DNA from: Nannocystales bacterium
Lineage (GTDB): Bacteria > Myxococcota_A > Polyangia > Nannocystales > Nannocystaceae
NCBI GenBank assembly: GCA_050633305.1
Contig: JBOEGF010000019.1
Location: forward strand, 194,544 to 258,543
Direction of reading: 5' to 3'
Length of the DNA stretch: 64,000 nucleotides
In this document: in pieces, positions 16,491 to 19,070 of the stretch
Numbering within the stretch: position 1 is the stretch's first letter
How the letters are laid out: each line of letters opens with the position of its first letter
Program-made: the position numbers and the translations under genes
Notes under the pieces: generated by a model
Database searches by the model: none
The model's input: the letters and a program-made list of their open reading frames with translations, nothing else
Told to the model about the DNA's origin: nothing

Positions 16491-19070
16491 CTAGCGAGCG
16501 ATTGCGATGTACACCCGCGGGCTCTCGGTCGCGGACACCCACGCCAGGTCCTTCTTGGCCGAGCCACCAAAGTTACCGACGTGCAGGTCGAACTGACTCC
16601 ACGCTTCGTCGGCGAAGATGTCTTGGGGGATCGCTCCGAAGTCGAAGGTTCCGTCACCCAATGATAGGCCGACGTAGACACGGTTGATAGCGCCGTCGCG
16701 AAGGTTCAGGATGAGGTCGGCGCCGTCATTGCCACTGACGTCAGAGAGGTGGGCCTCGAGGTCGGAGGGTCCGTCCTCGAGTACGAAGGGCTCACTCCAA
16801 CCGGGGAGGGGCGTAAGGCCAGAGTTGCCTCCTCGTGCAACCTTGATGTGCGCCGTGCCGTCCGTTGTCTTCACCCAAACCAGGTCGTCGGCACCGTCGA
16901 TGTCGATATCGCCGGCCAAGGTTTGATAGCCATCGTTCCAGCCTCCATCCGGTGCTGCCCCGAGGACGGGGGTCCCAGCGTGTGGTTCGAAGACATTGCT
17001 CAGCTGGACAAGTTCCGCGGGACCGCGCCGTGTTACCAAGTAAACTTGATTGGTCGCGCTGCCCTCGGGGTCGAGCAGTCGGTTCCACAACACGTCGGGC
17101 GAACCGTCGCCATTGAAGTCACCCACGAAGTCGCCAAGATAGTTGGGGGAATCGGAGCCGTGGCCCGGGTCGTCGAGGTCGTAGTAGATCTGATAGTAGT
17201 CCGCGATGTTCAGATGACCAGAACCAAGGGAGAGGTTCGACCGCGTGGCGAAGCCCGGGTTGTATTCACGACCGAACGCGAGGATGGGCTCCACCATCCC
17301 GTCTCCATCGAGATCCATCAGGTGAAAAGGGTGGTTGTTGGGTAGCGTGCTTCCGATTCTCCCCGACTGGAGCGGCTGGTAGGCGATCGACTCCTCGTCT
17401 GTGTCCGTACCTCCGCCGGAGAGGCCAACGTAGAAGGCATTGAGTCGGCCCGTGAGCGTCGGATGGGGGCCGGCGTTGTAGTTCCAGACGAGGTCCGCGT
17501 CGCCGTCGCCGTCGACGTCTCCCGCACGAAGGTTGTAGGGACTCCAGGTCGCAGGCCCGTCCTCTCCGTCGAATTCGGACAGCACGCCGCGAGAAAGGGT
17601 GCCGTCTTCGGACCCGTGCAGGACGGCGATGCGGTTGTCATCGCCGCGGTGGTTGAAGATCAGGTCGTCATAGCCGTCGCCATCGCTGTCGGCGACGAGA
17701 ACCTCGGCCACCGTCCCCATTTCGAGCTCGAAGCTCTGCGCATCAAGTGGTTCGAAGACCCCCGGGTTGGCCTGTTGTGCCTCGCAGGTCTTGACCGTGT
17801 ACTCGGTCGTCTCCGAGACCGCGGCGATGCTGTTGTCGCCGAGGTTCTTGAACGTGTACTGCAGCGGCACTGCCGTGGAGAGGGAGGCCTCGTTGGTGAA
17901 GTAGGCCGACCAGTCGCCGGATCGAATCACGCTCAGGGCATCTGCGGCGTCGCCTCCGAGGGTGGTGAGGACAATGGTCGACTCCGAGAGAATCGACTTG
18001 TGCTTGCTCGACAATGACCCCGAAACGCCCCCGGCGATCGTGTTGTACGACGCCTGCAGCGCGGCGCGAATCTCAGACTCGCTCGCGGTCGACGTCAGCG
18101 TGAAGGTCATCATGCGGCCATAGACCGCATTCGAGACGTACACGGGAAGGTTGTCGGGGCCGATGCGGCCAGCCTGCTCCAACGCTTCGAGGTCTTCGAC
18201 GGTGAAGTCGTCGGCGAAGAACGACTCCGGGCCCGATCCAGGGGGCTCGACCACGACGGTAAACATGCGCTGCGTGAACTGGACCGCCACGGTGTTGGTC
18301 GACGCATTCTGGTCGATGGACCCCGAGGCCGAGGCCTTGAACCCCAGGTATCGCCCGGAGACCCCGGCAGACAGCGCGAACTGTTTCTCGGAGTGATAGG
18401 TCTGCATTTCGAAGCTGATGGACGACGGGGTGTCGAGGTCGTTGCGCGAGGCGTTGCCTACGAGACTTCCGATGGCCGCCGCGACTTCGGCCTGGTTGGG
18501 CGCGACCTCGCGGAAGTTCTCGCCGACCGGGCTGGCGATATCCGGGATCGAGACCCGGATCGGTGCGCGCTTCGTGACGGTGAGCGGCAGGACGTCGCCG
18601 ATGCTGATGCCATCACGATGCGTTCGCCCTTGGATGAACGAGCCGGGATAGATCACGTCACGGCTGGGGTCGGACAGAACGATCGCCCCCGGATTGGAGG
18701 CCATGGAGTACGGCAGCTCGGTGCACTCGTAGCTGACGTCGCCCAGGACCTCGACCTCCCCCTCTTCGTTGATCTCCGTGACACCCTCGACGGTTTCGAC
18801 GGTTTCGACGGGCTCGGCCTCGGGGAGGGGCAGGGGCTCCTGTGCGGCCAGCGGAGGCGAGAACTCCTCCCACGTGGGGAGTTCCTGAAGGTAGACCGCA
18901 ACGTCCTCAGACTCCGGTCCGCCGCTGGCGTCGGGGTCGGGACCGGGGTCGGGGTCGGTATCGGTGCCGAGATCGACGGCAGCGTCGTCGCCGCATCCAA
19001 GGGGCAGAGTCACACAGCCCATCACAAGGACGAGACCGGAGCATAGTTTGAGATCGGAGGAGAGAGCCAC
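16491..19070 (-). CDS. Thiol-activated/cholesterol-dependent cytolysin-like lipoprotein with C-terminal FG-GAP repeats
   Basis: Lipobox LGC-GDD; IYPGSFIQG, FTQRMFTV, PVYVSNAVYGR, LGGDA, PLQYTFKNLGDNS; seven D/N.xGDG.xD-type repeats. Confidence 0.88.
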   Translation of the reverse strand: MALSSDLKLCSGLVLVMGCVTLPLGCGDDAAVDLGTDTDPDPGPDPDASGGPESEDVAVYLQELPTWEEFSPPLAAQEPLPLPEAEPVETVETVEGVTEINEEGEVEVLGDVSYECTELPYSMASNPGAIVLSDPSRDVIYPGSFIQGRTHRDGISIGDVLPLTVTKRAPIRVSIPDIASPVGENFREVAPNQAEVAAAIGSLVGNASRNDLDTPSSISFEMQTYHSEKQFALSAGVSGRYLGFKASASGSIDQNASTNTVAVQFTQRMFTVVVEPPGSGPESFFADDFTVEDLEALEQAGRIGPDNLPVYVSNAVYGRMMTFTLTSTASESEIRAALQASYNTIAGGVSGSLSSKHKSILSESTIVLTTLGGDAADALSVIRSGDWSAYFTNEASLSTAVPLQYTFKNLGDNSIAAVSETTEYTVKTCEAQQANPGVFEPLDAQSFELEMGTVAEVLVADSDGDGYDDLIFNHRGDDNRIAVLHGSEDGTLSRGVLSEFDGEDGPATWSPYNLRAGDVDGDGDADLVWNYNAGPHPTLTGRLNAFYVGLSGGGTDTDEESIAYQPLQSGRIGSTLPNNHPFHLMDLDGDGMVEPILAFGREYNPGFATRSNLSLGSGHLNIADYYQIYYDLDDPGHGSDSPNYLGDFVGDFNGDGSPDVLWNRLLDPEGSATNQVYLVTRRGPAELVQLSNVFEPHAGTPVLGAAPDGGWNDGYQTLAGDIDIDGADDLVWVKTTDGTAHIKVARGGNSGLTPLPGWSEPFVLEDGPSDLEAHLSDVSGNDGADLILNLRDGAINRVYVGLSLGDGTFDFGAIPQDIFADEAWSQFDLHVGNFGGSAKKDLAWVSATESPRVYIAIAR

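Follow-up and report, generated by a model that had tools for sequence, protein, structure and literature searches.

Gene and domain layout

The stretch of DNA analysed here as a whole, hereafter the window, comprises 64,000 nucleotides of a Nannocystales bacterium (contig JBOEGF010000019.1, positions 194,544 to 258,543) and belongs to a genome of 11.0 Mb with 66% GC that is 92% complete (labelled G000, its contig C19 carrying the window). On the minus strand, at 16491..19070, an open reading frame (ORF) with a GTG start encodes a lipoprotein of 859 residues in which, as indicated by profile matches and a structure model, a core similar to that of the cholesterol-dependent cytolysins (CDCs) is fused to a seven-bladed VCBS/PVL-type propeller. 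An earlier note made from the sequence alone had described this gene as a CDC pore-forming core whose domain 4 is replaced by seven FG-GAP repeats on a lipoprotein anchor. Divergently from it and 175 bp apart, the plus strand encodes an ECF (extracytoplasmic function) sigma factor (19246..19878), the end of which is overlapped by the start of a Hanks-type Ser/Thr kinase gene (19865..22477).

The precursor begins with a predicted signal peptide II (18993..19070, minus strand, as are all the segments of the gene), recognised by inspection from a hydrophobic stretch ending in the lipobox LGC (Cys26). In an alignment of 114 of the 120 homologues listed, which also served as AlphaFold2 input and to which all conservation counts out of 114 refer, this Cys is conserved in 109 sequences and the remaining 5 are gapped, so that the anchor proposed earlier holds. 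It is followed by a region (18708..18992) delineated by model confidence and column conservation, namely a disordered acidic linker (residues 27-54) and then a conserved helix YLxxLPxW with a beta segment (55-121); pLDDT is below 50 across most of residues 1-54, and residues 27-121 are a candidate domain-2 and/or propeptide region. Lys and Arg are scarce in residues 72-115, with none in 61/114 homologues and a single one in 44/114. The core itself spans residues 122-433 (17772..18707), including the M269-F270...Y317GR sensor motif, the G372-G373 hinge and Cys429, and the propeller occupies residues 434-859 (16494..17771).

The predicted pore-forming module

Over residues 122-426 the protein matches PF01289 with an E-value of 2e-28 and 99.5 bits (cut-off 25), and a sequence search of the PDB retrieved CDCs over residues 122-429 with E about 1e-18. 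The motifs from which CDC domains 1-3 had first been recognised are all present, i.e. YPG, FTQRMFTV, VSNAVYGR (Y317-G318-R319), LGGDA (G372-G373) and PLQYTFKNLGDNS. The AlphaFold2 model of the protein reached a pLDDT of 82.8 and, in a VIA-align comparison of its core, pneumolysin ranked first (Z 25.0, root-mean-square deviation (rmsd) 3.7, 346 residues aligned), followed by the large (Z 19.9, 8g33) and small (Z 19.2) subunits of EaCDCL, a CDC-like protein (CDCL); Foldseek agreed with this result. The profile and structure comparisons proposed in the earlier note thus both returned a CDC fold.

The CDCL signature defined in PMC7527733, F/Y-F/Y-Xn-YGR plus a glycine pair, is found here as M269-F270...Y317GR and G372G373, and YGR, the glycine pair and Cys429 are invariant (114/114). 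As had been noticed, no undecapeptide is present: a string resembling it (WEWW or ECTG) occurs in 0/114 aligned homologues, and the CDC domain 4 that bears both this element and the cholesterol-binding loop, and that characterises a cholesterol-dependent cytolysin, is missing. With perfringolysin O and pneumolysin, the protein shares its top core scores, hairpins of CDC length and a single-gene organisation, but it has neither their domain 4, undecapeptide nor cholesterol-binding loop and is a lipoprotein of a Gram-negative environmental bacterium.

Two transmembrane hairpins are predicted, the first at residues 226-258 (18297..18395) from a gap-free alignment to the perfringolysin segment and family hydropathy, the second at residues 328-364 (17979..18089) from perfringolysin alignment and hydropathy; the latter is 4 residues longer than its perfringolysin counterpart. 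In both regions, hydrophobic and polar residues take turns throughout the family. Cys116 and Cys429, both invariant, lie on two long domain-2 strands and would be expected to form a disulfide. Mean column identity is 0.81 for the core, the most conserved region, vs. 0.57 for the propeller. In silico, the pore machinery, i.e. fold, switch motifs and amphipathic hairpins, is demonstrably intact and, because the core exceeds the propeller in conservation, its switch residues do not vary and its hairpins are amphipathic, insertion appears to be still under selection.

A lectin-type propeller in place of domain 4

The C-terminal 426 residues match the FG-GAP_3 profile (PF13517) at E 3e-12 over 4 stretches, and the seven blades, established from the model, profile matches and Trp conservation, each carry an Asp-rich loop. 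These seven acidic loops, as counted in the earlier note, begin at residues 461, 518, 586, 651, 721, 777 and 833, with the Asp/Glu at the ninth position of each conserved in 113-114/114 homologues. The seven-bladed propeller therein was correctly perceived but its assignment to integrin-type FG-GAP repeats was not, because the string GAP is absent from the repeats and FG occurs once, inside the last Asp loop; the blades are of the VCBS type. Modelled alone from a 37-sequence alignment, the propeller gave a pLDDT of 84.1 and a pTM of 0.87, and its best structural match was the Psathyrella lectin PVL (Z 24.4, rmsd 3.2, 322 aligned), ahead of the Chromobacterium lectin CV39L (Z 20.9) and UmbA4 (Z 20.0), while the best integrin (Z 17.8) fell below all three, within the plateau of generic propellers. 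A profile of the propeller family ranked likewise UmbA4 (E 4e-29), AAL2 (E 3e-20) and a further N-acetylglucosamine (GlcNAc) lectin (E 6e-17) ahead of integrin alpha-V (E 4e-6). Both sequence and model place the propeller nearer to lectins than to integrins, contrary to the integrin-alpha-like propeller first envisaged.

A Trp preceding the Asp loop is conserved at five of the seven blades (114, 102, 101, 110 and 114 of 114, respectively). From this conservation, the inter-blade Trp509, Trp711 (within GGW) and Trp824 of the window protein are candidate sugar pockets; in PVL and AAL2, the sugar pocket is reported to be formed by a GW located where a loop joins successive blades (PMC8023676, PMC4483166). 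Seven VCBS blades with Asp loops and inter-blade (G)W place this domain among PVL/AAL2-type propellers, and VCBS blades, Asp loops and Trp-lined inter-blade loops are shared with UmbA4 (9oee; PMC13274773) as well as with PVL and AAL2 (2bwm, 4tqj). In the umbrella toxins of Streptomyces, the UmbA4 propeller directs an antibacterial toxin to a cell-wall glycan, teichuronic acid (PMC13274773); it has six blades vs. seven here, where the propeller is fused directly to the pore core. Unlike in AAL2, the GlcNAc-binding Asn and His are not conserved as such: by sequence spacing only, the pocket residues Asn/Asp at Trp-8 and His at Trp+5 were not found conserved, Trp-8 being His (87/114) or Gln (87/114) in the two loops with the best conservation and varying in the rest, with a Tyr/Phe at Trp+3 in place of the AAL2 His at Trp+5. 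Since these contacts are not conserved, they point to no particular sugar as ligand. An ESM Atlas search with the propeller returned generic FG-GAP clusters only.

Calcium had been put forward as part of the targeting. The Asp loops are indeed of the Ca2+ type, but the glycan affinity of AAL2 was reported unchanged on Ca2+ addition (PMC4483166) and, by analogy, Ca2+ is more likely structural than a targeting ligand.

Family and distribution

Among 8000 candidates scored, 388 proteins matched at E 0.001 or better, and both domains are present in all 120 homologues listed of these 388, most at about 40% identity. The source names among those listed are Balneolaceae, Rhodothermales, Bacteroidota and one Chloroflexota, a homologue occurs in Rhodohalobacter mucosus, which represents the cultured Rhodothermia, some members bear the database label 'thiol-activated cytolysin/VCBS repeat protein', and the nearest named relative, at 70% identity, comes from a Nannocystaceae metagenome-assembled genome (MAG). 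A single-protein search of genome contigs recovered 2 loci and an alignment-based metagenome scan 66. The fusion occurs in 2/72 genomes of the host family and 0/6 of the same genus (these six being 72-94% complete) and, in a phylum sample of 401 genomes, in the present genome and one distant other. By sequence, the fusion family is widespread, mostly in Rhodothermia/Bacteroidota, and rare in Myxococcota.

Across the best 150 representatives at 50% identity, the core is present in 96, as a full-length fusion in 48 and without propeller in 34. Among the tails of 26 of these 34 that were scanned, one is a ricin-B domain (E 4e-20), one a C-type lectin (E 4e-10) and three are laminin-IV domains above cut-off, most others being without a Pfam match; a LamG tail occurs on a more distant core, and other distant cores bear tails of ~145 residues labelled C2-like or ~240 residues labelled hemopexin-like, by eye and with no Pfam match. 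A variable domain 4 has already been reported for CDCLs (PMC7527733), and no such propeller is found in the 17 sequences of Fig. S2 of that source. A midpoint-drawn, unrooted tree was built from 77 cores, 97 having remained after de-duplication and 20 of the 41 propeller rows having been dropped from these; in it, the propeller genes are united in a single group of 24 (100/99). Its sister group (L087-L096, L100) has the same core with a different acidic tail of ~200 residues that belongs to no Pfam family and matches unnamed clusters in the ESM Atlas. Three tail-less rows in the propeller clade, considered as small subunits, were rejected, L067 and L078 being cut by their contig and L073 having a stop near its contig end.

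Besides, eleven Rhodothermia CDCLs (L101-L111) reach ~250 bits on PF01289, as true CDCs do; their identification as such was rejected as they carry no undecapeptide and have tails of ~145-160 residues. An ECF43-like sigma gene lies inside the 4-kb locus for 9/11 of them. Another locus (L145, G274:C12:220000-239999) has four CDCL genes of the large type packed into 12 kb, with tails of three kinds, i.e. a 240-residue repeat type, a LamG-like one and two propeller fusions, and no small subunit. Several CDCL genes show a frameshift or internal stop (L084/L085, L097, L043:1990-4071, L111), by assembly error or decay.

The missing small subunit

The CDCLs studied so far function as a large plus a small subunit (PMC11169675, PMC11952106), and one gene alone is reported in 821 of the 1578 Bacteroidota genomes having the family, only pairs having been studied (PMC11169675). 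No second CDC core exists among window ORFs of at least 60 residues, as the earlier note had stated. To appraise this beyond the window, 401 genomes of Rhodothermia were sampled, the class being read from the name of a Longimonas MAG. PF01289 was found in 34 of these genomes with 43 matches, of which the fusion accounts for 24, in 23 genomes, and other large types for 19, and all 43 have a C-terminal domain that is present or begun before the contig end. No tail-less CDCL was detected by the PF01289 search in 23/23 of the Rhodothermia genomes having the fusion, of which 17 are without any other PF01289 match, nor in G031, another fusion-bearing genome (71% complete). A short CDCL neighbour was likewise found at 0/20 metagenome loci having at least 1.5 kb on both sides; large-type CDCL neighbours lie upstream at three metagenome loci (L043, L055, L079), one of them frameshifted. 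The search is able to detect small subunits, because those of Nannocystaceae were recovered at E 1e-26 or better.

A genome search for a small partner, as recommended in the earlier note, did uncover a pair. Besides the fusion gene, the present genome encodes three CDCLs on other contigs, namely an orphan large one on C50 and a large plus small pair on C10, but the core identity of the fusion to the C10 genes is 25%, and the propeller clade is widely separated in the tree from the branch (100/98) in which the five small subunits of Nannocystaceae join the large subunits they are paired with. At the C10 pair (about 783166-786401; L002:7167-10402), the large gene, with a ~150-residue tail, lies upstream of the tail-less small one and both encode lipoproteins; this large-then-small order recurs in several Nannocystaceae, is a case of two-component CDCL outside Bacteroidota, and is reversed relative to the described small-then-large pairs. 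The C50 orphan is a lipoprotein (L001:3302-5050) with a 140-residue tail without Pfam match, and has orthologues in most same-genus genomes.

The fusion gene has no linked small subunit. All criteria of sequence and structure that were tested identify the protein as a CDCL, though not of the two-component type as defined by an adjacent small gene. With the large subunits of Elizabethkingia anophelis and Bacteroides fragilis (6xd4, 8g33; PMC7527733, PMC11169675, PMC11952106), it shares the SpII-type lipoprotein, CDC domains 1-3, YGR and GG, the lack of undecapeptide and an unrelated domain 4. It differs by a 426-residue lectin-type propeller vs. a ~150-residue domain, no adjacent small subunit, an ECF43/kinase neighbour, and no C11 protease or immunity gene found.

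Sigma factor, kinase and upstream motif

The sigma factor belongs to TIGR02999/PF07638 (TIGR02999 189 bits, cut-off 126) and has ATTA at the position of the ECF43 phosphorylation motif QTTA (PMC13147305). The kinase is PknS-like, with a start codon that is inferred, a kinase domain (Pkinase E 3e-41) and C-terminal TPR repeats (TPR_12 E 2e-33). The two genes thus present the sequence features of an ECF43 module, i.e. a PF07638/TIGR02999 sigma factor, a QTTA-like Thr and an adjoining kinase gene. Close homologues of this sigma factor number only 2 in the 11 Mb of the present genome. In Xanthomonas citri, the pair EcfK/PknS switches on an anti-amoeba type VI secretion system (PMC13147305, PMC6653060); the sigma family motif, the kinase-TPR architecture and the position beside a putative weapon are common to both, but what that pair governs is different (PMC13147305). 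The earlier note had taken in neither this module nor the breadth of the family nor the CDCL pair elsewhere in the genome.

An ECF43-like gene lies within 5.5 kb of 15/22 Rhodothermia fusion genes with flanks, where 0.9 would be predicted from the 356 matches in 97 Mb, among which weak ones raise the rate; two more fusion genes, cut by their contig, are without such a sigma gene, i.e. 15/24 overall. In G251 and G371, the fusion gene is located between sigma and kinase genes. At the metagenome loci, some of which are redundant, a sigma or kinase gene is near 19/49, and near 11/20 with long flanks. The three genes are all present in G031, with 68-73% nucleotide identity and on two short contigs, and stand in a row at locus L035, in line with a likely lateral gain of the gene together with sigma and kinase.

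Upstream of the fusion gene, a Gibbs motif search highlighted a two-box promoter-like site, ATGAGG-N17-GCGCTT (19079..19107, minus strand), which ends 8 nt before the GTG; it is a candidate ECF43 promoter, and the message is possibly leaderless. The motif emerged from an unseeded search of 46 upstream regions with a score of 10.1 vs. 6.0 for shuffled ones, many members being kin, and its spacing is identical at locus L003. As a regular expression, it was counted in 31/46 regions (shuffle mean 12, maximum 19) vs. 13/29 of other CDCLs (mean 9, maximum 14), a count that is circular as the pattern was drawn from this gene.

Mode of action and alternatives

Taken together, sequence and model suggest a kinase-switched weapon that would recognise the cell to be attacked from the sugars on its surface rather than from cholesterol. 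The reading favoured here, with a probability of about 0.5, is that of a single-gene, inducible and lectin-aimed CDCL pore former targeted to glycans, the chances being about even between competing bacteria and grazing protists as targets. As gene context and the EcfK/PknS precedent would have it, the TPR kinase would sense contact or damage, the neighbouring ECF43 sigma factor would be phosphorylated and transcription would start from the two-box site. The product would be exported as a lipoprotein, in keeping with its lipobox, and then be located at the surface or shed by a putative route. The inter-blade Trp pockets of the propeller would bind a surface glycan on the other cell, taking over the role of domain 4, with Ca2+ stabilising the blades; the fold is seen in silico and the ligand is presumptive. 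Following loss or displacement of the N-terminal segment, the cores would align edge to edge, the YGR/GG switch would trip and, as in CDCs and CDCLs, two amphipathic hairpins per subunit would insert as a large beta-barrel. A small subunit would be unnecessary, because it is absent from the genomes.

A number of observations weigh against this reading. Regarding regulation, 9/24 Rhodothermia copies are without a nearby ECF43 gene (several on short contigs) and the genomes are kin, while ECF43/kinase pairs flank other Rhodothermia CDCL types too, so that the link is not propeller-specific. Regarding the core, the first position of the F/Y-F/Y motif is Met, non-aromatic, in 114/114, though this position is reported as variable (PMC7527733), and only 2/4 hairpin strands of the window sequence exceed shuffles at p <0.05. 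Regarding activation and self-protection, no conserved basic site was seen, no match to a C11 protease (PF03415) was obtained in the present genome and no conserved immunity gene or small neighbour was seen beside homologues; in known CDCL systems, the C11 protease sits on the target cell. Regarding the propeller, the window copy retains 3 of the 5 family Trp and has lost 2, the pocket residues of AAL2 are not conserved, GW loops occur in many VCBS propellers and are no proof of a lectin (PMC8023676), and similar propellers are present on proteases and giant repeat proteins. Finally, either subunit of the studied CDCLs alone, the large one included, released <10% of maximal marker (PMC11169675, PMC11952106).

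The main physical doubt is one of geometry. A seven-bladed propeller is about 45-50 Å across. The EaCDCL ring offers about 27 Å per subunit at its rim (30 subunits, 260 Å), so that, by analogy, a full ring with every propeller attached would be crowded, which therefore gives weight to arcs, splayed propellers or propeller shedding. This spacing and the missing small subunit would both be accounted for if one gene filled both CDCL roles, intact molecules binding glycan and nucleating while most subunits, cleaved after Cys429, polymerise without propeller as small-subunit equivalents into a membrane attack complex (MAC)-like pore made from one polypeptide. Linker position 432 is Arg or Lys in 70/114 homologues but Gln in the window protein, whose short linker received moderate to good confidence in the model, and propellers might fan out or be arranged in two layers, or arcs dispense with a full ring; this scheme is unlikely.

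Quite unlikely is that the protein would be an orphan large subunit recruiting a small CDCL from elsewhere, such as the tail-less C10 product, as an alternative targeting module. All studied CDCLs need both subunits, the present genome does encode a small one, a large subunit given a foreign binding domain was still able to recruit the small one (PMC11169675), and a partner may be too divergent for PF01289. Against this stand the absence of any tail-less CDCL from the 23 fusion-bearing Rhodothermia genomes and G031, the clustering of Nannocystaceae small subunits with their own partners and the low core identity to C10.

It is just as improbable that, instead of a glycan, the propeller would bind a protein receptor as integrins do, with dependence on Ca2+. 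The conservation of the Asp loop in each of the seven blades and the integrin matches (E 4e-6, Z up to 17.8) would fit, as would the varied partners of VCBS propellers (PMC8023676), but lectins score well above integrins in both searches, the GAP motif is absent and sister cores exchange in recognised lectin domains. Integrin propellers operate with a beta subunit, and no such neighbour was seen in the loci inspected. Weakest of all, a non-lytic surface-tethered adhesin or sensor with the CDC core as stalk or oligomeric scaffold for the lectin would suit the lipid anchor, the lack of an immunity gene or activating protease and the signalling hinted at by the kinase neighbour, but is very improbable given a core more conserved than the propeller, invariant switch residues and amphipathic hairpins.

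A lectin-aimed pore former encoded by a single gene would have a parallel in the Bacteroidales BSAP toxins (PMC12853789), which are also single-gene lipoproteins with a variable C-terminal receptor domain, many of these domains being predicted to bind glycans; they differ by a MACPF rather than CDC-type core, other receptor folds and gut rather than aquatic or soil taxa. In snail PV2, a MACPF domain is linked to a lectin (PMC12031178). A literature search in which subscription journals were mostly uncovered found no report on this fusion, on its affinity to lectins or on its association with ECF43; seven supplementary files of PMC11169675 hold no FG-GAP, VCBS, PF13517, Balneol, Rhodohalobacter or Rhodotherm entries, and the part available of a preprint on a gasdermin-CDC chimera (10.64898/2026.10.05.756811) does not mention propellers or lectins. 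The present case addresses what CDCL domain 4 binds and what single-gene CDCLs do: it is a clean case of a large subunit without small partner and, as its domain 4 has a recognisable lectin fold and named residues, the receptor is searchable on a glycan array. Besides, the ECF43/kinase link would name an inducer and make defence against protists an option other than the antibacterial function known for pairs. More boldly, and with little likelihood as a whole, this protein might be the type member of a stand-alone class of CDCLs in aquatic and soil bacteria that swap one glycan-binding domain for another (PVL-type propeller, ricin-B, C-type lectin, laminin-IV, LamG), respond through phospho-ECF43 when they touch a predator or rival, and form with one gene product a MAC-like pore, most of whose subunits have lost the propeller.

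Other features of the window

Abutting the stop codon of the fusion gene, a degenerate miniature inverted-repeat element of ~160 bp (16332..16494) was identified from 6 near-full copies elsewhere in the genome, with 85-87% identity and terminal inverted repeats. A nearby 30-bp stretch (16283-16312) is identical at two other sites and presumably resembles an IS3-family end. Convergent with the fusion gene, a predicted ORF of 476 residues with a lipoprotein-like segment (14856-16286, plus strand) has a lower GC content at third codon positions (GC3), of 0.70; considered as an immunity gene, it found no support, having no Pfam/NCBIfam match and being absent beside homologues. At 12024-13616 (plus strand), 3 kb downstream of the fusion gene, lies a lipoprotein S41/tricorn-type peptidase, which is a possible but unsupported activator and is not conserved beside homologues. 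More broadly, between about 3100 and 36500 the long ORFs mostly have a GC3 of 0.70-0.82 vs. 0.84-0.87 for several genes outside, and many ORFs resemble small regulators and lipoproteins; from sequence composition, this part of the window is probably a variable region.

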